Positions 1 to 12,465 of a stretch of DNA of 60,579 bases are shown here, one piece after another. How positions within the stretch are numbered: position 1 is the first letter of the stretch; each line of letters begins with the position of its first letter. Origin of the DNA: an uncultured Bacilli bacterium (GTDB taxonomy: Bacteria > Bacillota_I > Bacilli_A > RF39 > UBA660). Both the position numbers and the translations under genes were made by a program. Location: NCBI GenBank assembly GCA_947631295.1, contig CANRKU010000005.1:1-60579 (forward strand). The letters run 5' to 3'. Below the pieces are notes generated by a model. The model was not told the DNA's origin, made no database searches, and saw nothing but the letters and a program-made list of their open reading frames with translations.

Positions 1-97
1 TTCTAGACTTAAAATTATTTTGATTATAAAACTTATTTTTTAGGTTTAAAATCTCCACACTTATTCTACACTAACAACACCTAGGTATTTTGAAAAG

Positions 98-333
98 TGT
101 AGTGTTACAATTGATGTGACACCGATTAATGTATGCAAAAAGCGATTGATCCAGTAAAATGTTAATTGAAACAAACACATTTAAAGAAAGGATCTAATCG
201 CTATGACTAGTATATCACAATCTCTAAGATATTTGCCACATGATTTAAACACTAAATTTTATTCCGTTAAACTTTATAGACAAACTCATTCTATTAACCA
301 TGTTTGTAGAAGATATCATATTTCTAAATCTTC
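98..333 (+). mobile_element. Truncated copy (left end plus first ~43 codons) of the IS at 11279..12465
   Basis: 236 bp are the reverse complement of 12230..12465 with 2 mismatches seen. Begins with terminal IR TGTAGTGTTACAATTGATGTGACACC; transposase ATG at 203. Confidence 0.93.
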
Positions 334-901
334 AATAGTTTTGTAAATATTTTTTTCAAGAGGAAATTTTCTCCAATTGTATTTTTCTTTCATATCTAAA
401 CCATTAGCTATAAAAATACGCATAATTTGACTAATTGGTTCAAAATCATATGTTATGTAATCAATTCCTTGAGGATTTTTATAGTATATATAATTTCTCT
501 TTTCAATATCATTTAATCCATTAATTTTTACAAGATTTAGTTTATTAATTATTTCCTGCTCATTTTTATAATTATGATTAACTATATGAGTATGTGCATG
601 AATTACACAGTTTGCACATAGACCACAAGGATCAGGAGTACCGTGTTCAAAAACAATTGGATATTTCCATATATTTTTTTGAATTTTTCTCTGTACTTTT
701 CTAAAATAGAATTATATTCTTCCATTATTTCTTTGTCAAATTTAGTCATGCAATACGTATGCCTTTTAGGTAATATCAAGATATATCCAGGGACTAATGA
801 ACCAAACAAGGAATAATAATAATAATAAAATTATTTGTTTCTTCAATAATGTTATTATAAAATAATTCTTTATCTAGTTTACAAAATGTGCAGCCAACCC
901 T
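316..901 (-). pseudogene. HIT-like (CwfJ-type) hydrolase pseudogene with two frameshifts and an apparently lost start
   Basis: Joining three frames gives GCTFCKLD..ETNNFIIIIIPC / GSLVPGYILILPKRH..KKIYG / YPIVFEHGTPDPCGLCANCVIHAHTHIV..SQIMRIFIA..KYNWRKF. The CxFC and HAHxH motifs are present. GGAGG RBS is followed by AGG instead of ATG. Confidence 0.75.
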
Positions 902-930
902 AAATACTCTGCCTCCCAAAATTAACAAAA

Positions 931-1063
931 ATTGATGTTGTCAATTTGCAAATGTGTTTTCTATATTGACATTTATATCAATTCAACCTATAAAAATTAT
1001 TACATAAACTCAAACATTTTAAAACTCGAACTATAAAAGTCCGAGTTTGATATCAATCTGGTG
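931..1063. repeat. Diverged copy of the ~130-bp segment downstream of tmRNA (2366..2498): junction, terminator, promoter, leader
   Basis: aaactcgaactataaaagtccgagtttgatatcaatctggtg vs aaactcgaactataatagtccgagtttgctatcattctggtg, with similarity continuing over the whole segment. Confidence 0.88.
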
Positions 1064-1098
1064 CGAATGTAAAGGTTATCTATCACTTTTTGATAAGG

Positions 1099-1716
1099 CT
1101 ATTGTACTTTTCCTTTTACAACTACATATGGTTGTTGGCGGTGTTCAATTGGTAAAAATCGATCGTCAAACCACATCATAAAAAATTTAAATGCGCTAAA
1201 ATAAGTATAACCATCTGTATAATCATCTGTTTCATCTGATGAATCAGCAAAAATTAAAATGTCTTTTAAAAACGACTCATCTTCACTTCTGTGATCATAA
1301 CCAATTATAACTTGATAATGCCCTCCATAATATACACTTTCTACTAAAATAGGATACCCTTTTTTTAAATTTGAAATAACAAATTCTCTAAACTCTTCCA
1401 TAGTTTCAAAACATTTTCCATTAACTGTTTTAGGATGTTCAATACTACTTTCTACCTCATAGCCATTATCTCTAAAAAAATCAACAATATTTTTAATTTT
1501 AGTGCCACCTGGAATTTTACAATCAACTCTTTTAAAAATTTCTTTTTCATCCATAGAATAATCATTATAATAATTAAGAATCATTAAAACTGCATTAGGC
1601 CCACAAGCACATTCTATTGTCCATTGATGCGTTTTAAAATTAGTTAATATTGTTAATTCATTATCACTTTTTAAATCATAAAAATTGTTATTTACATAAT
1701 ATTCACGATTTGCCAT
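1099..1716 (-). CDS. C39-like (papain-fold) cysteine peptidase family protein
   Basis: Q-x5-CGP, GGHYQVIIGYD and LIFADS motifs (Cys/His/Asp triad); GGAGGT RBS. Confidence 0.75.
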   Translation of the reverse strand: MANREYYVNNNFYDLKSDNELTILTNFKTHQWTIECACGPNAVLMILNYYNDYSMDEKEIFKRVDCKIPGGTKIKNIVDFFRDNGYEVESSIEHPKTVNGKCFETMEEFREFVISNLKKGYPILVESVYYGGHYQVIIGYDHRSEDESFLKDILIFADSSDETDDYTDGYTYFSAFKFFMMWFDDRFLPIEHRQQPYVVVKGKVQ

Positions 1717-1900
1717 GTTATTACCTCCTATTACTAGTATATCACATATTTTGTTTTGACAAAATTATTAACCCCTAGATATTTTGACAAGTCTATCAAA
1801 ATAACCTAAGGGGCTATCTTTTTATATCAATATTCGAAAAAGTTCGAATAGATTCGTCAATGGTGCTAAAAGAAGAGTACAACAACTTATAACCTTAAAA

Positions 1901-2341
1901 TTAATTTATTACGTCTTTATTAATTAATGTATCATTTAATTTTTTATCGTAAATACTTTTTATGTTTGCACTAAAATCAAAAGAAAATTGTTCTAAATAT
2001 TCAATAACTAAATCTACATGTTTTTCAAAATTTAAGTCTCGATTAAGATTCTTTAAATATTTTGAAACAATTTTATTCCTATTAATTCGATTTACATAAA
2101 AATACAATAAATTAGTATTACCTATTTTTTCTTTTCCCGATTTAACAATAGAAAATAGATATTCATGACAAGATGCTGGACCGGTAAATCCAAGATCAAA
2201 CATTATAAGCACACATCCAATAAAAATCTTATCAGTTCCATCTGAGGGTAATGTCTTTTTAGTAAATTCTAGTAATTTATCTATAGATTTAGAATTTATA
2301 TATTCTTCTGAAAATATTTGTAAAAATTTATTAATAATCAT
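1901..2341 (-). CDS. Hypothetical protein (first cassette downstream of tmRNA)
   Basis: 146-aa ORF with GGGAGGT RBS; no recognisable motif. Confidence 0.7.
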   Translation of the reverse strand: MIINKFLQIFSEEYINSKSIDKLLEFTKKTLPSDGTDKIFIGCVLIMFDLGFTGPASCHEYLFSIVKSGKEKIGNTNLLYFYVNRINRNKIVSKYLKNLNRDLNFEKHVDLVIEYLEQFSFDFSANIKSIYDKKLNDTLINKDVIN

Positions 2342-2456
2342 TTTGTTACCTCCCTTTTATGCAATATATTGTTTTGGCAATATGCAAGTGTGTTTTCTAA
2401 ATTGACAAATATTCAATTTAATTTATAAAAATTATATCAAAAATTTAAGCACTTTA

Positions 2457-2483
2457 AAACTCGAACTATAATAGTCCGAGTTT
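2457..2483 (-). terminator. Intrinsic terminator after tmRNA
   Basis: Minus strand: aaactcggac-tattata-gttcgagtttt, 10 nt after the CCA end. Confidence 0.7.
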
Positions 2484-2493
2484 GCTATCATTC

Positions 2494-2845
2494 TGGTGGA
2501 GCTGAGGAGAATCGAACTCCTGTCCAAAACTAGATCTTCAAGAATATCTACAAGTTTAGTTAACTACACAATCTCGTTATATCAAAAACTAGTTAACGAA
2601 TGTTGATATAACCAGTCTATAAAATTCATTACTACTATAGACATCATAGTAATATAACCTGCTAAAATCGAGCCTCTAAGAAAATCCACAGGTAAGATTT
2701 TTATAGAAGCGCTACGCTATATGCTTTATTAAGCAGCGTAAGCCATTGAATAATTGTTTCCAGTTATATTTAACTGATGCATTTTAAGATTGCCATCTAC
2801 TTGCCATTCCTGTTCCACTAATCCTGTCGAAACCAAAGCAGCCCC
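2494..2845 (-). ncRNA. ssrA: tmRNA; tag peptide (A)GNNYSMAYAA at 2729..2761
   Basis: 5' GGGGCTG..TTCGACAGG and 3' GGTTCGA-type T arm ending CAGCTCCACCA; ATAACT resume context; tag ends YAA-stop; lies downstream of smpB. Confidence 0.97.
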
Positions 2846-2920
2846 ATATGTGTCGTAATTATAACATAATTACATCTACTTTTCAATGGATAAAATTACC
2901 ATAATGTATTATGAAATATC

Positions 2921-2949
2921 TTGTACTAAGAACAAATGTTTGATATAAT
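2921..2949 (+). promoter_or_regulatory. SigA-type promoter for the small hydrophobic peptide transcript
   Basis: TTGTAC-N17-TATAAT with extended TG. Confidence 0.7.
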
Positions 2950-3020
2950 GCTATTGGATACATTTGAAATATATCAGATGTTTTTCCTTTCGATTATCAG
3001 AAGATAAGTGGTGGTTCATT

Positions 3021-3098
3021 ATGACAAAAAGAGAAACATCTCTATTTATTATAATTCTACTATTATTCTTTATAGTAATCACCTTACTATTTAAATAA
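3021..3098 (+). CDS. 25-aa hydrophobic peptide MTKRETSLFIIILLLFFIVITLLFK; candidate type I toxin
   Basis: Translated by hand (below the ORF-track cutoff). GTGGTGG RBS-like sequence, one TM helix, upstream promoter, convergent antisense RNA. Confidence 0.65.
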   Translation: MTKRETSLFIIILLLFFIVITLLFK

Positions 3099-3099
3099 T

Positions 3100-3210
3100 A
3101 AAAACATCTGATTTCAACAATCGTTGATTTCAGATGCAATCCATAAGGGATAACATCTGATTCGCACAATCAAATGTATCCTTTTTTATTTTATGCAAGT
3201 TTCCTTGACG
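3100..3210 (-). ncRNA. Candidate antisense (antitoxin) RNA of ~110 nt
   Basis: Promoter TTGATA(3244-3239)-N17-TATGAT(3221-3216) with TG; ends in hairpin catctgaaatcaacgattgttgaaatcagatg plus U-tract. Confidence 0.55.
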
Positions 3211-3266
3211 CATTCATCATAACATAAAAACGTGCTTTTATCAAGCTGTTTTGCTTAAAATTACCA

Positions 3267-3707
3267 TCAATAAATATTTTTCTGTGCTTTAGCAACCTGT
3301 CTTTTAATATCTTGTTCCTTCATACTTTCACGTTTATCAAAATTATGTTTTCCTTTGCATAATCCTAATAATATTTTTGCTTTATTCTTTACAAAATAAA
3401 CTTTTAATGGAATAAGAGTATAACCCTCCAATTTAATTTTATCATTTAGTTTACGAATCTCTGTTTTATGTAAAAGAAGTTTTCTAGTCCGAGTTTCCTC
3501 ATGATTAAAGATATTACCTTCTTTATAATGGCTAATAAACATATTTAAAAGAAATACTTCTCCCTTTCTAACAATACCATAACTATCCTTAATATTTGCT
3601 TTCCCTGCTCTGATAGATTTAATTTCGGTACCCGTTAACACAATTCCACATTCGTATTCTTCCTCAATAAAATAATCATGCCTAGCTACTCTATTCAATA
3701 TTTCCAT
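3267..3707 (-). CDS. smpB: SsrA-binding protein SmpB (likely ATG start at 3707)
   Basis: GIVLTGTEIKSIR, RTRKLLLHK, GKHNFDKRE motifs. Confidence 0.98.
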   Translation of the reverse strand: MEILNRVARHDYFIEEEYECGIVLTGTEIKSIRAGKANIKDSYGIVRKGEVFLLNMFISHYKEGNIFNHEETRTRKLLLHKTEIRKLNDKIKLEGYTLIPLKVYFVKNKAKILLGLCKGKHNFDKRESMKEQDIKRQVAKAQKNIY

Positions 3708-4836
3708 TACTATCACTCTTTCCTATTCTGCTATCTCCATGAACTACAATATCCATATATTTTTGATAATAAGAATTATAATTAGGTAAAATTTCCTCAG
3801 TCAATTGATGAAAAGGATAAACCTTATAATTTCCACGATATCCTTTTTGATAATCACTATAGGTATATGTTAACTCACTATTAATATTTTGTAAAGAAAC
3901 ATCTCCTGTTTTTATATCTTTCACAACATCTAAACTAACCATTAAACCAATTAATTTCTCCAATCGATCCTGACCAGATAAAAAATTACCTAAAGAATAA
4001 ATAACCAAAGTATCATCAATAAATTCAATAGGCTGTACCACATGAGGATGATGTCCAATAATAATATCTACACCCAAACTAGCTAAATAATTAGCTATTT
4101 CTCTTTGTGTAGAATCAGGGGTATAGGTGTATTCCTCTCCAAAATGCATAGATACTAAAAGTAAATCTACTTGATTTCTAACTTTTTCAATATCCTGCCT
4201 TACTATCTCTTCATCATAACGATTTAATAAATAGGTTTTTCCATCTGGGATACGGAGTCCATTAGTCCAATAAGTATAGGATAAAAGTGCATATGTAATA
4301 CCATTTTTCTCTTTTATGATAATTTGATTTCTATCTTCATCAGAAGCATAAGAACCTGCTGTATAAACATCTTTATTTTCCCAATAATGAATAGAATTTA
4401 AAATAGCTGATTCCCCTCTATCCAAAGTATGATTATTAGCTAAAGATACTAAATTAAATCCAGCATCTAAAAAAGCATCACCTACTTCGTAAGGAGAATT
4501 AAATCTTGGATAAGAAGAAAGCCCTAATTCTACCCCTCCTAAAATAGATTCTTGATTATAAAAAGCTAAATCATCAGATGAAATAATAGGTTTTACTTTT
4601 TCTAACATAGGTTTAAAATTATAACCATTCTCTGTTTTAGCATCCATATATACAGATTCATGAATTAAACCATCTCCTACCATAATAAGAGATAACTTTT
4701 TTTCTGTTTCCATCACACTTTCCGCATTTTCATCTTTATGACTAGTTTCTTTATTAGAATAATTAGAAAATATGAAAAAAAACAAAAAAAGAGTAATAAG
4801 AACAATAAACGAATTCCTAAATACTACTTTTTTCAT
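3691..4836 (-). CDS. CapA/PGA_cap family metallophosphoesterase, membrane-anchored
   Basis: N-terminal TM; VGD, NQES, LANNHTLD, HFGEEY, GHHPHV, YSLGNF motifs. Confidence 0.9.
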   Translation of the reverse strand: MKKVVFRNSFIVLITLFLFFFIFSNYSNKETSHKDENAESVMETEKKLSLIMVGDGLIHESVYMDAKTENGYNFKPMLEKVKPIISSDDLAFYNQESILGGVELGLSSYPRFNSPYEVGDAFLDAGFNLVSLANNHTLDRGESAILNSIHYWENKDVYTAGSYASDEDRNQIIIKEKNGITYALLSYTYWTNGLRIPDGKTYLLNRYDEEIVRQDIEKVRNQVDLLLVSMHFGEEYTYTPDSTQREIANYLASLGVDIIIGHHPHVVQPIEFIDDTLVIYSLGNFLSGQDRLEKLIGLMVSLDVVKDIKTGDVSLQNINSELTYTYSDYQKGYRGNYKVYPFHQLTEEILPNYNSYYQKYMDIVVHGDSRIGKSDSNGNIE

Positions 4837-6976
4837 CTTTTATCAACTCATTTTCTGGTTCTTCTATGACCTTTTTAATAATATCAAAATCAATTGTTTG
4901 TTCCTCTTTAGATGCACGAACAACTTTTACTAATACTCTATCTCCCATAGCATATTTCGTTTTTGTTTTCTCACCCGTTACACTCATTGTCTTTTCATCA
5001 TAATGGAAAAATTCTTTTAAATCTGCTAAGCGGCATAATCCTTCAATTAAATTATCCAATTGTACAAATATCCCAAAATTAGTAATTCCCGAAATCATTC
5101 CTTCAAATTCTTCTCCAATATGGTCTTCCATATATTCAGCCATTTTCATATCATCTACTTCTCTTTCACAATTAACAGAAGCTTTTTCTCTACTAGATGC
5201 AATCTCAGCAACTACTGGCAATTTATCCTCCCAATGTTGAATAGTTTCATTACTTAAGTCATGTTGAAATAAATAAGTTCTTAATAACCTATGAACTGTA
5301 GTATCTGGATATCTTCTAATAGGAGAGGTAAAATGTGTATAACATGGACTAGCTAAACCATAATGGCCCAAGTTTTGATCTTTATAAATAGCTTTTTGCA
5401 TACTACGTAATAGTAAACTAGATAAAATTTTAAATTCTTTTTTATCTTTTAAGAAATTAATTAATCCCTGTACTGCCTTTGGACTATTGTCTTTCATATT
5501 TCCCTTATATACATAGCCAAGAGTTCCTATATAAGATAAAAAGTCATAAATTCTTTCTTCTTTTGGCACTTCATGTACACGATAAATAAAAGGAAGCTCC
5601 ATGTAGAAAATATGAGTAGCAACACATTCATTCGCAACAATCATAAAATCTTCAATTAAATTTTCTCCAACTCCTCTTTCGCGTAAAACAATTTCCGTTG
5701 GATGACATTTCTCATCTACTAGAATTTTAGCTTCATCAACATCAAAATCCAAATACCCTCGATTTAATTTACTTTTTCTTAATATCTGAGCAAGTTCTGC
5801 CATCATTCTCAAATCTTGTTCAAAATCTTGATATCCTTCTGGAACAATATTATCTTCTAAAATACTATTAACAGCTGTATATGTCATTTTCTTACGTGAT
5901 TTAATAAAACTTTCAAAAATATCATAAGTAACAATTTTTCCAGAATGATCAATCTCCATAACACAAGAAATAGTTAACCTTTCCTCTCCTTCATTCAAAG
6001 AACAAATACCATTAGATAATTGATGAGGGAGCATCGGAATAACTCTATCTACTAAATAAACACTAGTACCCCTATCCATAGCATTAATATCTAAAGCTGT
6101 TCCTTCTTTTACATAGTAACTAACATCTGCGATATGAACACCAAGCTCATAATTACCATTTGCTAATTTTTTAATAGAAACTGCATCATCAATATCTTTA
6201 GTATCAGCACCATCTATTGTAAAAATTACCTCATTAGTTAAATCTCTTCTACCTACTTTATCTTGCTCACTAACTTTATCAGGAATCTTTTTTAATTCTT
6301 CTATTACTTCATCTGGAAATGTATCATTGATATTATATTTATAAACAATAGATAAAATATCTACCCCTGGATCATTTTTATGTCCTAAAACTTTAACAAC
6401 TTCACCTAAATAAAGAGAATTATCAAGCTGTTTCAATAATCTAACTTGAACCTTATGCCCATCTACAGCCCCATGAATTTTATCAGGTTCAATAATAATA
6501 TTCATTTTTAATTTTTCATCATCTAAAATTAAGTGACCTTTCTTATTTTCTAAATAAAATTCACCAACCACAAACTCTAAATTACGGTCTAATATTTTTA
6601 AAATCCTACCCTCTAATTTATTTTTTTCTTTTCTGCCAGTGATTTCAGCTACTACTAAATCATTATGTAAAGCCCCATTCATATTAGAAGAATCAATATA
6701 AATATCTTCACTATCTGGTATTTCAACAAAACCATAGCCTTTTCTATTTACTCTTAGGATTCCTTTTTTTAATGGACTCCTATCAAATGTCATATAATTA
6801 TTTTTATTCGTTCTATAAATTGTATAATCATTACACATTTTGTTAATAGTATCTTCTAATTCACGAAATTCATCCGTTGTTTTTAATTCAAGTAAATGAT
6901 CAATTTCTTCAATACTTAAAGCCTTATTTTTGCGATTTAATAAATTCAATATTTTTTCTTCCAAGAAAATCACCAT
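4817..6976 (-). CDS. rnr: Ribonuclease R
   Basis: FTIDGADTKDIDDA, HFTSPIRRYPD, C-terminal S1 domain; secG-rnr-smpB synteny. Confidence 0.97.
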   Translation of the reverse strand: MVIFLEEKILNLLNRKNKALSIEEIDHLLELKTTDEFRELEDTINKMCNDYTIYRTNKNNYMTFDRSPLKKGILRVNRKGYGFVEIPDSEDIYIDSSNMNGALHNDLVVAEITGRKEKNKLEGRILKILDRNLEFVVGEFYLENKKGHLILDDEKLKMNIIIEPDKIHGAVDGHKVQVRLLKQLDNSLYLGEVVKVLGHKNDPGVDILSIVYKYNINDTFPDEVIEELKKIPDKVSEQDKVGRRDLTNEVIFTIDGADTKDIDDAVSIKKLANGNYELGVHIADVSYYVKEGTALDINAMDRGTSVYLVDRVIPMLPHQLSNGICSLNEGEERLTISCVMEIDHSGKIVTYDIFESFIKSRKKMTYTAVNSILEDNIVPEGYQDFEQDLRMMAELAQILRKSKLNRGYLDFDVDEAKILVDEKCHPTEIVLRERGVGENLIEDFMIVANECVATHIFYMELPFIYRVHEVPKEERIYDFLSYIGTLGYVYKGNMKDNSPKAVQGLINFLKDKKEFKILSSLLLRSMQKAIYKDQNLGHYGLASPCYTHFTSPIRRYPDTTVHRLLRTYLFQHDLSNETIQHWEDKLPVVAEIASSREKASVNCEREVDDMKMAEYMEDHIGEEFEGMISGITNFGIFVQLDNLIEGLCRLADLKEFFHYDEKTMSVTGEKTKTKYAMGDRVLVKVVRASKEEQTIDFDIIKKVIEEPENELIKDEKSSI

Positions 6977-7086
6977 ATTCTTTCTAACTATATTATAGGA
7001 TAATTCCTATATTTTAACAATAAAAAAAAAGAAGAAACAAATCTTCTTTACAAGAATATACTATCAAGATATATGTATTGTAGTTT

Positions 7087-7302
7087 CTAAATAAATTCCA
7101 TAACTAAACTAATAATAAAGAAAGCCATACCAAGTATAAAAGTAATTCTAGTAATTACTAATTCACTACCTCTTTCTTTACGGTTAGAAAATAAATCAGA
7201 ATTACCTCCAGAAATAATTTGTGCACCACTTTCAGCTTTATTACTCTGTAATAACACAATCACAATTAATAAAATGGATATAACTAATAATACTGTTTGC
7301 AT
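7087..7302 (-). CDS. secG: Preprotein translocase subunit SecG
   Basis: Two TM helices, VLLQ..GG..LF..KERG motif, synteny. Confidence 0.95.
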   Translation of the reverse strand: MQTVLLVISILLIVIVLLQSNKAESGAQIISGGNSDLFSNRKERGSELVITRITFILGMAFFIISLVMEFI

Positions 7303-7350
7303 AGTATCCCTCCATAACTGTTAATATTTTATCATAGAATATACTAAAAA

Positions 7351-7944
7351 TCAAATTTTTTTCAAAACAATATCGAAATTTCTATAATCATATTTTTGTT
7401 TTATTTTAGGTTTATTATTATCATTCTGTGAATTACATAATTTTAAAAAATCAGATAAATTAAGTTCTTGAAAAATATTTTCATGATTTTTAATTGCCTT
7501 ACTTATTTTCTCTTTTTGAGATAAAATTTGAGAATAAAATTCTTTGGAATGATTATTCATGAAAGATTTACTAATACCCATTTTAGTAAAAATCTTATTT
7601 TCCATACTTAAATTAGTTTCTTTAATAACTAAAGAACAATTGCCTTTAAAAATTTCTTTCTTAGTAAATGGTTCTACAAAAGACAAAGAACCAGCATAAA
7701 CATTATCCTTAATACCACAATGAACACGGTAAATATAGCTACTATCATCAAAACAAAAGAATAGTTCAAAACCTTTATTTGGTTCATAAAAGCCAAAAAC
7801 AAAACCAACACTATTTTGCTGATCTGTTGTACCAAACCTCATGAAACCCTCAAACCAAATATCTTCCTGCATTATAAAATAACCATTAAACAGTTGATGA
7901 GATTTATCTAGTTGCCAATATCCTAGAATATTCTCAATTTTCAT
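7351..7944 (-). CDS. Hypothetical protein
   Basis: 197-aa ORF with GGGGGA RBS. Confidence 0.7.
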   Translation of the reverse strand: MKIENILGYWQLDKSHQLFNGYFIMQEDIWFEGFMRFGTTDQQNSVGFVFGFYEPNKGFELFFCFDDSSYIYRVHCGIKDNVYAGSLSFVEPFTKKEIFKGNCSLVIKETNLSMENKIFTKMGISKSFMNNHSKEFYSQILSQKEKISKAIKNHENIFQELNLSDFLKLCNSQNDNNKPKIKQKYDYRNFDIVLKKI

Positions 7945-7968
7945 AATACATCCCCCATAATTAAAATA

Positions 7969-8442
7969 TCATATATTTAAAAAATATACAAATAAATTTA
8001 AAATGCTAGCAAAAATTATCCACAATAAATATGGAATTTGTAAGTATGCACTTATTTTAGAAATTTCATAAAACTTTTTAATCATTAGCACTACAAAACC
8101 AATTAATAACAGTATCCAAATAAAAGCTAAAAAATAAAAACGAAAAGTAAAAAACCAAATACTCCAAAAGAGATTGATAATTAACTGAATTCCATAAATA
8201 AAAAGAGCATCATTTTTTTTATAAGAATCACTTTGTATAATCAAATAACTAGATATCCCCATTAAAGTATAAAGAATAGTCCAAACAATAGGAAAAACAA
8301 TACCTGGAGGTGCAAAGGAAGGTAATTTTAAATCGCTATAATTATTAGATGTTGCTGTCAAATAACCCACAAAGCTACCTAAAAAAACAGGAATAATAAT
8401 GCTATATAATAATCGTTTATAATTTATTTTCAAAGATATCAC
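7969..8442 (-). CDS. TspO/MBR family tryptophan-rich sensory protein
   Basis: LPSFAPPGIVFPIVWTILYTLMG, NLFWSIWFF, PYLLW motifs. Confidence 0.93.
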   Translation of the reverse strand: MISLKINYKRLLYSIIIPVFLGSFVGYLTATSNNYSDLKLPSFAPPGIVFPIVWTILYTLMGISSYLIIQSDSYKKNDALFIYGIQLIINLFWSIWFFTFRFYFLAFIWILLLIGFVVLMIKKFYEISKISAYLQIPYLLWIIFASILNLFVYFLNI

Positions 8443-11278: not shown

Positions 11279-12465
11279 TGTATAGTTGTAAATGATGTGA
11301 GACCAAAAAATTAAAAAAGTTAAAGTGATATGATATAGTAAAAATGATAATTAAAGAATTTAGGTAAGGTAAATAAAATGTTGAATTTTAATTCAATATT
11401 TTATTTAGCAGTAGAAGCGTTAGCTTCTAAAAAATGTCTTTTTTCTAAAGGAGAATGCCAACCAAGAACTTGCATTGGAATGTTATTACTTCTTTTGAGA
11501 TAAGATTTCATTTGTTTCAGAAGATCTTCATAAGAATAAAACTTTAAAAATTGATAGAATCTTTGTTGATCATTACGGTGACTTCTTTCGACTTTACCAT
11601 TATGTCTAGGAGTTCTAGGTTTAATGAGCTTATGTTGAATGTTTAAAGAATTACATAAGATATCAAAAGGATGAATTCTATCCGTTTTCGCAATATGAGT
11701 GAATTCAGAACCATTATCAGTTTGGATAATTTGAGGTTTATATCCAAAATAGAAAATAGCTCTTTTAACAAAATCAATAGTAGAATAAGAGGACTGTTCT
11801 TTGTAAGGATAAATAAATCTTTCACGAGAGGCTTCATCAATAATGGTATATTGGTAAAATTTTTGTGGATCGTTACCAGAATAACATTCAGTAGGTACAT
11901 ATTTAACATCTAATTGCCATTTAATACCAAGTTGTTTAGGAGTATCATAATGTTTAGGAATATACTTCTTATGCTTTTCTTGATTCACATAGAAGCCAAG
12001 TTTTCTCATAACTCTGAATAAAGAACAAGCATGTCTAGAATAACCTTTTTCAGTTCTTAATTTTCCATAGAGTTCACAGAGGGAAATATGGGGATTTCTT
12101 CTAGTGTAGTCATGAATCCATTTTAATTCTTGTTCAGTATGAGCATTTGGATGTGGAGTATTGGGTTTATGAGATTTATCAATTAAAGATTCTTTGGTTC
12201 CATCAAACTTTTTATTCCAACGCATTAAAGAAGATTTAGAAATATGATATCTTCTACAAACATGGTTAATAGAATGAGTTTGTCTATAAAGTTTAACGGA
12301 ATAAAATTTAGTGTTTAAATCATGTGGCAAATATCTTAGAGATTGTGATATACTAGTCATAGCGATCAGATCCTTTCTTTAAATGTGTTTGTTTCAATTA
12401 ACATTTTACTGGATCAATCGCTTTTTGTATACATTAATCGGTGTCACATCAATTGTAACACTACA
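11279..12465 (-). mobile_element. Complete 1187-bp insertion sequence, IS481/IS1202-like
   Basis: TGT-initiated 26-bp imperfect terminal IRs (20/26 match), single DDE transposase, flanking direct repeats. Confidence 0.93.
11401..12360 (-). CDS. DDE (rve integrase core) transposase
   Basis: N-terminal HTH; WQLDVK, IQTDNGSEF, PRHNGKVERSHR motifs. Confidence 0.95.
   Translation of the reverse strand: MTSISQSLRYLPHDLNTKFYSVKLYRQTHSINHVCRRYHISKSSLMRWNKKFDGTKESLIDKSHKPNTPHPNAHTEQELKWIHDYTRRNPHISLCELYGKLRTEKGYSRHACSLFRVMRKLGFYVNQEKHKKYIPKHYDTPKQLGIKWQLDVKYVPTECYSGNDPQKFYQYTIIDEASRERFIYPYKEQSSYSTIDFVKRAIFYFGYKPQIIQTDNGSEFTHIAKTDRIHPFDILCNSLNIQHKLIKPRTPRHNGKVERSHRNDQQRFYQFLKFYSYEDLLKQMKSYLKRSNNIPMQVLGWHSPLEKRHFLEANASTAK

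Follow-up and report, generated by a model that had tools for sequence, protein, structure and literature searches.

Single-gene cassettes at CACCA cores behind ssrA and tRNA genes in uncultured gut Bacilli

Directly behind ssrA, the gene of the transfer-messenger RNA (tmRNA), three small units with one gene each are stacked on the same strand in the 1.1-Mb genome of an uncultured gut bacterium of the Bacilli, and the question is what these units are and how they have come there. We have analysed the locus in a stretch of 60,579 nucleotides (nt), contig CANRKU010000005.1 of assembly GCA_947631295.1, which is called the window below. A sequence-only reading made earlier had taken the locus for an integron-like, integrase-less array of single-gene cassettes. 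This holds in so far as the units belong to a real cassette family, whose ends lie at the CACCA core of a tRNA-type 3' end. We consider it probable that the three units are non-autonomous, mostly single-gene, lineage-wide cassettes, and that they owe their movement to site-specific recombination at tRNA CCA ends.

The comparisons cover a genus sample of 29 genomes (the genome of the window, G000, and 28 others) and an order sample of 121 genomes from 73 genera. Genomes carry G-numbers, C-numbers are contigs of G000 unless another genome is named, and L-numbers are fetched loci (L009 is G000:C6, L010 is G000:C11, L066 is G019:C6 and L089 is G000:C37).

Architecture of the units

Along the direction of transcription, each unit consists of a core CACCA, usually with G next, a left arm of about 135 nt, one gene, and a right arm of about 33 nt whose last bases are the following core. 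In the window all these features are on the minus strand, where the gene order is rnr, smpB and then the tmRNA gene (2494-2845; ARAGORN; Rfam RF00023, 160.6 bits), the latter being the sole match in an Rfam scan of positions 1-8000 with E up to 1. The motif CACCA-N13/14-TCGRACT has three matches, all on this strand (2473-2498, 1841-1865 and 1038-1063), against a mean of 0.00 in 100 shuffles. That is, the three junctions noted earlier are present, and the first of them does include the real CCA end of the tmRNA according to ARAGORN and Rfam. What did not stand is one common form for all three, since the arm downstream of the middle junction differs from the other two.

In unit 1, core 1 (2494-2498, a motif match with G next at 2493) is the 3' CCA end of the tmRNA itself. 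The first copy of the type-1 left arm follows (2367-2492; repeat search; nhmmer, 127 bits; fold z -4.4; promoter-like site), with a terminator-like hairpin at 2457-2483 (-16.6 kcal/mol, z -4.4), a predicted promoter-like site made of a -35-like TTTAAA and TG-TATAAT (2458-2431), and an inverted repeat TTGGCAAT/ATTGACAA (2374-2408) with a ribosome-binding site (RBS) after it. The cargo is the hypothetical gene orf146 (1901-2341), for which Pfam gives no family and all Atlas matches are below 0.9. Starting 8 nt past its stop codon, an A-type right arm, AAGTTGTTGTACTCTTCTTTTAG (1861-1893), ends in core 2 (CACCA, 1861-1865), as supported by the motif and by a match of the right-arm hidden Markov model (HMM) at 1888-1861.

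Unit 2 begins with a type-2 left arm (1717-1860), which has an inverted repeat CCCCTTAGG...CTAGGGG and TG-TATACT and was recognised by comparison with a gene-less stub on contig C3. Its gene (1099-1716) encodes a papain-like protein of 205 amino acids (aa; Peptidase_C39_2, Pfam E 2.5e-9), and neither this gene nor orf146 was found in any of the 28 other genus genomes. A degenerate B-type right arm, AAAAAGTGATAGATAACCTTTACATTCG (1058-1092), starts 6 nt past the stop and contains core 3 (CACCAG, 1058-1063); it falls below the HMM threshold and was assigned by alignment with other right arms.

The left arm of unit 3 is the second type-1 copy (931-1057; repeat search; profile, 128 bits), with a hairpin at 1021-1047 (-16.2 kcal/mol, z -3.8) and the inverted repeat at 938-971. 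The proximal segment that units 1 and 3 had been said to share is confirmed over 126 nt (938-1063 and 2374-2498), at 84-85% identity and with one 1-nt indel. As for the hairpins reported beside each junction, those of the two type-1 arms are strong, while that of the type-2 arm (1832-1849) is weak, with a fold z of -0.35. The gene of unit 3 (319-928), farthest from ssrA, is indeed a pseudogene, broken by two frameshifts into pieces at 797-928, 606-806 and 319-660. Its middle fragment matches Pfam HIT with E 1.1e-3 and 19.9 bits, under the cut-off of 21.5 bits, so that the earlier name HIT-like is weakly supported, while the labels hypothetical for orf146 and C39-like for the gene of unit 2 hold. 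An HxHxH-like string was seen by eye in the last fragment, and in run X6 a related strain shows one more A, behind window position 666. Overall, each unit has one gene on the same strand with an RBS ahead of the start codon (RBS by eye), as proposed before.

Left arms after the core are of three kinds, i.e., type 1, type 2 (a hairpin of TTCGAA type and then an inverted repeat), and type 3; the middle junction of the window is a right arm joined to a type-2 arm. The type-1 arm contains, in order, ATTGATA, an 11-bp hairpin AAACTCGGACT/AGTTCGAGTTT, then TTTTAAAA, TG-TATAAT, an inverted repeat with the consensus TTGTCAAT-N18-ATTGACAA, and the RBS. The hairpin is stable (z about -4), and each of its pairs is kept in 40-48 of 49 distinct copies, often by G-T wobble on the transcribed strand, as would suit a terminator acting on the upstream tRNA or cassette. 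One left arm, at L009 10376-10440 (G000:C6 ~36376), has a tandem duplication of about 20 nt in the hairpin region.

The ends of the cassettes have neither terminal inverted repeats nor target duplication, and about 10 nt separate the hairpin from the left end. These features, together with insertion always 3' of a fixed short sequence, would suit single-strand transposition in the style of IS200/IS605 derivatives, in which a Y1 HUH transposase reads the hairpin and inserts 3' of CACCA. However, Y1_Tnp (PF01797) is found in only 10 of the 29 genus genomes, with no match in G000 and none found in G007, G023 and G008, the G-T wobble of the hairpin fits an RNA terminator on the transcribed strand, and the right arms are tRNA-end mimics as in the attachment (att) sites of integrases. 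Such a transposition is therefore extremely unlikely.

The right arms begin 0-60 nt past the stop codon and fall into two subfamilies, both like the T-arm and acceptor end of tRNA-Leu genes. They resemble the 3' ends of tRNA-Leu(taa) and tRNA-Leu(cag), and ACTTTAGGCACCA is common to the right arm and tRNA-Leu(taa). Judged by its sequence, the right arm goes back to the T-arm and acceptor end of a tRNA-Leu, copied in decayed form. We also considered the right arm as the severed tail of an integrase gene. This was rejected, since none of the 8 right-arm HMM matches in G000 overlaps the end of a recombinase gene, and a 60-nt block common to the right ends of the C3 and C6 elements described below has no open frame in C6 (by eye).

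Spread of the arms and transfer of whole cassettes

Left arms were searched in G000 with a profile of the 126-nt shared segment, and in the genus and order samples with a sequence-only model, R1. In G000 there are 11 copies, of which two are in the window, one is on C20, one is on C11 and begins exactly at the CCA end of tRNA-Met, and seven are matches on C6. The C6 array, on the plus strand, is composed of GNAT, 612-aa, 273-aa, 86-aa and 314-aa genes, HAD and NUDIX, punctuated by left arms; beside it, on one side, are a tRNA-Thr, a tyrosine integrase, a small zinc-ribbon protein and a CI-like repressor. Model R1 detects the left arm in 23 of the 29 genus genomes (up to 13 copies each), and in 53 of the 121 order genomes, representing 34 of the 73 genera. 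An exact degenerate core-plus-hairpin pattern served as a second, separate selection from species-representative genomes. It gave 38 loci, all in bins labelled uncultured Bacilli except one labelled Clostridia, and viral contigs gave no match to the degenerate hairpin pattern. The cargo in the sample includes GNAT, NUDIX, SDR, HAD and HD enzymes, and many genes of no named family.

Where do the arms sit? In the fetched loci, 52 arm copies keep their 5' end, and by automatic criteria 21 of them abut a tRNA or tmRNA end, 17 a right arm, and 14 neither, several of the last showing degenerate right arms by eye; a right arm lies 133-2838 nt downstream in 24 of the 52. Since these loci were picked for holding arms or for lying downstream of ssrA, such counts describe a non-random sample. 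For the 38 pattern loci, the arm abuts a tRNA or tmRNA of 10 kinds in 20 cases, a right arm in 7 and neither in 11, and a T-loop-like string was seen by eye in 9 of these 11. Overall, the left arm directly abuts at least 13 kinds of tRNA/tmRNA gene, including tRNA-Thr(cgt, ggt), Leu(caa, cag, gag, tag), Ala(tgc), Arg(tct, cct, acg), Met, Glu(ctc) and the tmRNA, all of which end in (C/T)ACCA. The arms thus recur downstream of tRNAs and ssrA in relatives across genus and order, and the accretion is not particular to ssrA as had been supposed.

The content of the cassettes varies between genomes, and the breakpoints lie at the cores, as the sequence-only reading had anticipated. When the ssrA loci of 18 relatives are compared, the homology that starts in ssrA ends 0-38 nt past the CCA end in all but G011, where it continues through the left arm and ends at the inner edge of the arm. 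It stops likewise in G019, despite a tmRNA 98.9% identical to that of G000. An SDR cassette of ~90% identity is found in three species after tRNA-Leu(caa) in G003, after tRNA-Arg(cct) in G008, and inside the ssrA array in G007, and the similarity stops at the right-arm CACCA. At the tRNA-Ala loci of G015 and G023 the flanks are 94% identical and the arms are kept, with different cargo; the tRNA-Thr(ggt) loci of G019 and G004 likewise keep flanks and arms and differ in cargo.

The sharpest case is the pair L098 and L108 from different species, which have 690 nt in common with 2 mismatches (99.7% identity). The identity runs from CACCAG exactly to the right-arm CACCA, and the flanks are unrelated. 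Upstream there is a tRNA-Ala in L098 and a tRNA-like 3' end without an ARAGORN call in L108; downstream, a type-1 arm and a type-2 arm, respectively. The 141-aa gene of this cassette has no Pfam family at E 0.01 or better. Its relatives occupy 23 loci, 11 of them with recognisable arms; 5 of these 11 keep the left arm's 5' end, with a different sequence ahead of it in each, and three kinds of arm occur 3' of the right arm. Where arms are missing (12 loci), the homologues are more distant (up to 84% amino-acid identity), which is the pattern that capture of the gene from ordinary chromosomal contexts would leave. Between genera, left arms are 79-85% identical, compared with 81% for two copies within G000, and the tmRNA is 67% identical between G000 and G151.

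Two side observations belong here. In L108, the tRNA-like 3' end ahead of the shared cassette has a RhuM-family gene (26-826; Pfam E 3.5e-97) upstream of it, and this region may be part of another integrated element. Between L010 and L066, a segment with tRNA-Met and its cassette is inverted relative to a neighbouring 1.4-kb block, which may be a rearrangement between dispersed arms. A comparison of filled and empty sites at tRNA-Met between G000 and G019 was unusable, as the flanks are rearranged by the inversion.

Candidate recombinases

Two types of autonomous element in G000, on C6 and C3, end in a cassette-type right arm followed by CACCAG. A recombinase beside the same motif, which the sequence-only reading had suggested looking for, is therefore found in the genome, but not in the window, where there is no recombinase open reading frame (ORF) at positions 1-7000 and no integrase gene inside the units, orf146, the C39-like gene and the HIT-like pseudogene being their only cargo. 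The C6 element (G000:C6:27966-30660, L009 1966-4660) is a minimal integrative element of 2.7 kb. It encodes a tyrosine integrase with the domains Phage_integrase and Phage_int_SAM_3, an 81-aa zinc-ribbon membrane protein, a CI-like helix-turn-helix and S24 repressor, and a truncated cro-like ORF. It is placed between tRNA-Thr and a type-1 arm, and this arm is directly 3' of that tRNA in G019, G015 and G017. In G019 its left end is directly 3' of the tmRNA CCA end, as is a related left end in G017. Just inside the left end there is a direct repeat AGGTACT-N4-AGGTACT, which may represent the arm sites of the integrase. Overall, Phage_integrase has three matches in G000 (on C1, C8 and C6), none of them near ssrA. 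The C3 element, with a serine recombinase and MobV, sits at tRNA-Leu(caa), and homologues of its recombinase adjoin ssrA in G001, G002 and G020. Tyrosine integrases are found just upstream of the junction in 2 of the 38 pattern loci, and the recombinase homologues in the fetched loci lie outside type-1 units.

If the cassettes are moved by site-specific recombination, a cassette circle would join its own ends in the order right arm, core, left arm, and the joined ends would recombine conservatively with the terminal CACCA of a tRNA gene, a tmRNA gene or a resident cassette, by means of a recombinase supplied in trans. Such an insertion would regenerate the tRNA end and leave a new docking site, and because the docking site is renewed in this way, arrays would build up. 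Within the array, the hairpin of the left arm would close the transcript of the upstream tRNA or cassette, and the extended -10 promoter would drive the cargo gene. Enzymes that need homology in the overlap region require a shared core, and large serine recombinases need only a central dinucleotide. Since a core of 5-6 bp is common to every junction, the trans-acting enzyme is more likely a tyrosine recombinase.

On the other hand, several observations weigh against this mechanism. In the genus and order samples, no recombinase family co-occurs consistently with the cassettes. Actually, the C6-type integrase is present in 12 of the 29 genus genomes and was not found in the cassette-rich G007, G023, G008 and G019; in the order sample, 32 genomes have both the arm and a C3-type serine recombinase, 21 the arm only, 29 the recombinase only, and 39 neither. 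The recombinases found in G162, a holder of the 99.7% identical cassette, come down to two tyrosine recombinases of the Xer-like kind and three unrelated serine recombinases. Clean transfer of a whole cassette is seen in one pair, other shared cassettes being 94-96% identical with less sharp ends. Some copies retain only the distal part of the left arm, so that recombination inside the arms also occurs. A simple scan for terminators found none, and promoter-like sites were not above shuffles, and the extended -10 promoter and the terminator of the left arm are accordingly given here as predictions, as would be any operator role of the inverted repeat in the leader. No circular or empty-site form was seen in the assembled contigs of four public gut-metagenome runs. 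Finally, every genome used is a metagenome bin, where misassembly at repeats is possible.

In the contigs of the four runs, depth peaks on the arms, and loose ends pile at the cores (1064 and 1866) and at the inner end of the left arm (2372/2374); at the joints there are other letters between the two sides, or contents that are unread, and they look like other copies of the repeat. A recombinase common to the two genomes with the 99.7% cassette was tried as a candidate and dropped, the best nucleotide identity between their recombinase loci being 77%.

With no recombinase consistently linked to the cassettes, the arms could instead be homology anchors, and cassettes would be swapped by ordinary homologous recombination, for example after DNA uptake or conjugation, across the 135-nt left arm on one side and the right arm with the next arm on the other. 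The orthologous tRNA loci that keep both arms and differ in cargo alone would agree with this, and so would the copies with only a distal left arm. Such swapping leaves unexplained, however, why the arm starts exactly at the CCA end of so many kinds of tRNA/tmRNA gene and why every unit has a tRNA-end mimic finishing in CACCA; moreover, the identity of the 99.7% pair reaches both cores and ends there, not within the arms. We thus regard homologous exchange without a site-specific enzyme as unlikely.

The lack of a dedicated integrase would also be explained if the Xer recombinases of the host moved the cassettes, as with dif-module elements or integrative mobile elements exploiting Xer (IMEX-type elements). 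One or two Xer-like genes are present in 28 of the 29 genus genomes, and the tyrosine recombinases of G162 are all Xer-like. Yet the junction lacks a two-armed, dyad-symmetric site, and its targets are tRNA ends instead of dif. A dif-like candidate, based on a short motif, was seen in G000 at C1 ~84722, and has just an 8-nt string in common with the junction. Taken together, these points make movement by Xer very unlikely. As an observation on the genome itself, the candidate is 1.8 kb from the single Xer-like gene (C1:86542-87048), which suggests a single-recombinase Xer system with an adjacent site in G000.

The far end of the array and comparison with known systems

Unit 3 is bounded proximally by a junction, as described earlier, but has no distal junction. 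Directly 3' of its stop codon, and replacing whatever followed, there is a 236-nt 5' fragment of an insertion sequence (IS), with the first 44 codons of an rve-type transposase (98-333, plus strand, 99% identity to 12230-12465). In its full copy, at ~11380-12465, the IS encodes an rve-type transposase of 319 aa (Pfam rve, E 5.5e-18). The first ~80 nt of the IS are also found at the ends of contigs C18, C19, C29 and C30, i.e., the IS breaks the assembly. The outermost 77 nt (1-77) are 100% identical to the end of C37, the contig of hisS and aspS, so that the core genome resumes there. It is therefore an IS-mediated rearrangement that closes the array, and not a junction. The age gradient proposed for the array is not supported, as it depends on one pseudogene in a unit that is also cut by the IS, and in the seven-unit array on C6 there is no listed broken gene.

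This far end bears on the possibility that the units are decayed cis-mobilizable elements (CIMEs), i.e., remains of larger prophages or mobilisable elements which were serially integrated at ssrA and are now immobile. Unit 3 is a pseudogene beside an IS fragment, and the type-2 arm of unit 2 matches the gene-less stub 3' of the MobV/serine-recombinase element on C3 (84% identity over 122 nt); the same arm is also found 3' of cassettes in L074 and L108. According to PMC5704250, tandem accretion at tRNA genes followed by decay is a documented route to integrase-less, att-flanked elements, as for the CIMEs of ICESt1/ICESt3-type elements in streptococci, and according to PMC3146451, 16 of 31 Dehalococcoides ssrA islands have an integration module and the rest do not. 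Independent decay, however, would not give one layout around dozens of unrelated genes in 34 genera, and a whole cassette 99.7% identical in two species indicates recent movement of the small unit itself. No parent element with type-1 arms was found among the loci compared. An origin of the units as immobile remains is thus improbable in our view.

The likeness to CIMEs is still close. In PMC5704250, these also lack genes for integration and transfer, have att flanks including the end of a tRNA gene, form tandem stacks beside integrase-bearing elements, and are expected to depend on the recombinase of another element. The difference is that CIMEs are described there as decay products of particular integrative and conjugative elements or integrative and mobilizable elements, whereas in the cassettes standard arms (135 nt and 33 nt) enclose dozens of unrelated single genes, and many tRNA genes are used in 34 of the 73 sampled genera. 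PMC3146451 places the Dehalococcoides islands, as in the window, in tandem downstream of ssrA with a short direct repeat of the ssrA end as bounds; about half lack an integration module, and a large serine recombinase lies beside ssrA, likewise in G001, G002 and G020. Those islands, however, comprise several genes each (~12 kb for the vcrABC islands) and are ssrA-specific, while the units here are of 0.6-0.8 kb and use many tRNAs; and the crossover inferred there is in the T-loop region, while the core here is the CCA end itself. Tycheposons of Prochlorococcus, as described in bioRxiv 10.1101/2020.12.28.424599, have the tRNA at the island's proximal end, where repeated integration pushes older material inward as it would in our arrays, with partial tRNAs and degenerated elements scattered inside. 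Unlike the cassettes, they carry their own tyrosine recombinase and replication genes, and their leftovers 'lack clear boundaries', whereas the cassettes are sharply bounded and standardised. Overall, the behaviour of the cassettes matches tandem accretion of att-flanked integrase-less elements, and the outcome resembles an integron.

Two further neighbours of the array can be noted. The ssrA-smpB spacer (2914-3254) is a dispersed repeat, with an 83% identical copy at G000:C9:30687-31026 and many pieces of 50-100 nt across the genus, and it has the top contig depth of the mapped stretch in all four gut-metagenome runs. It contains a promoter-like site with TG (3244-3216, minus strand) and a hydrophobic ORF of 25 residues (3020-3098, plus strand), and might represent either a small RNA or a type I toxin-antitoxin-like module; in relatives, its promoter and leader are often found 3' of type-2 and type-3 arms. 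Upstream of hisS and aspS, L089 1-1480 has two adjacent genes made of 33-34-residue repeats with the motif LPALYGYSIDNIKQKIDDLIKLGYTKEEVIKMTK.

How does the array compare with an integron? There, the tyrosine recombinase IntI and the attI site lie beside the array, attC closes each cassette, and promoterless cassettes are read from a common promoter. Both systems have arrays of discrete, mostly single-gene units bounded by recombination sites; the cargo is rich in GNAT, NUDIX and unknown genes, and the same cassette can be found in different array positions. On the other hand, there is no IntI-type recombinase gene or attI site beside the array of the window, each type-1 arm has its own predicted terminator and promoter, and each genome has many docking loci. 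The earlier statement that nothing corresponds to attC has to be revised, since the conserved composite junction of right arm, core and left arm plays that role; attC sites are imperfect palindromes conserved in structure, whereas these junctions are a family conserved in sequence and derived from a tRNA end. What sets the cassettes apart from all these systems is the standard pair of arms, the built-in predicted expression signals, the use of many tRNA genes, and the family-wide spread in uncultured Bacilli. A literature search of a limited collection gave no account of single-gene cassettes with standard arms at tRNA ends.

More tentatively, the cassettes could form a second gene-capture platform, independent of integrons, in small-genome gut Bacilli, with docking at CCA ends, standard arms, ready-to-express single genes, and passing recombinases that target CCA ends. 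In that case the movers may reside on a phage or a mobilisable element or may perhaps be a host enzyme, and some cassettes may carry a transfer origin. The junction of right arm, CACCA and left arm would be a concrete substrate for finding the recombinase. As possible tools, one could think of expression cassettes that are compact and insulated by nature, and of a promiscuous recombination site at CCA ends. Integrons are the textbook system for stockpiling single genes as mobile cassettes. If our reading is true, an uncultured gut lineage with genomes of ~1 Mb would do the job of the integron with different parts, which would account for the frequent assembly breaks at tRNA and ssrA genes and for a flexible accessory gene pool in these reduced genomes.

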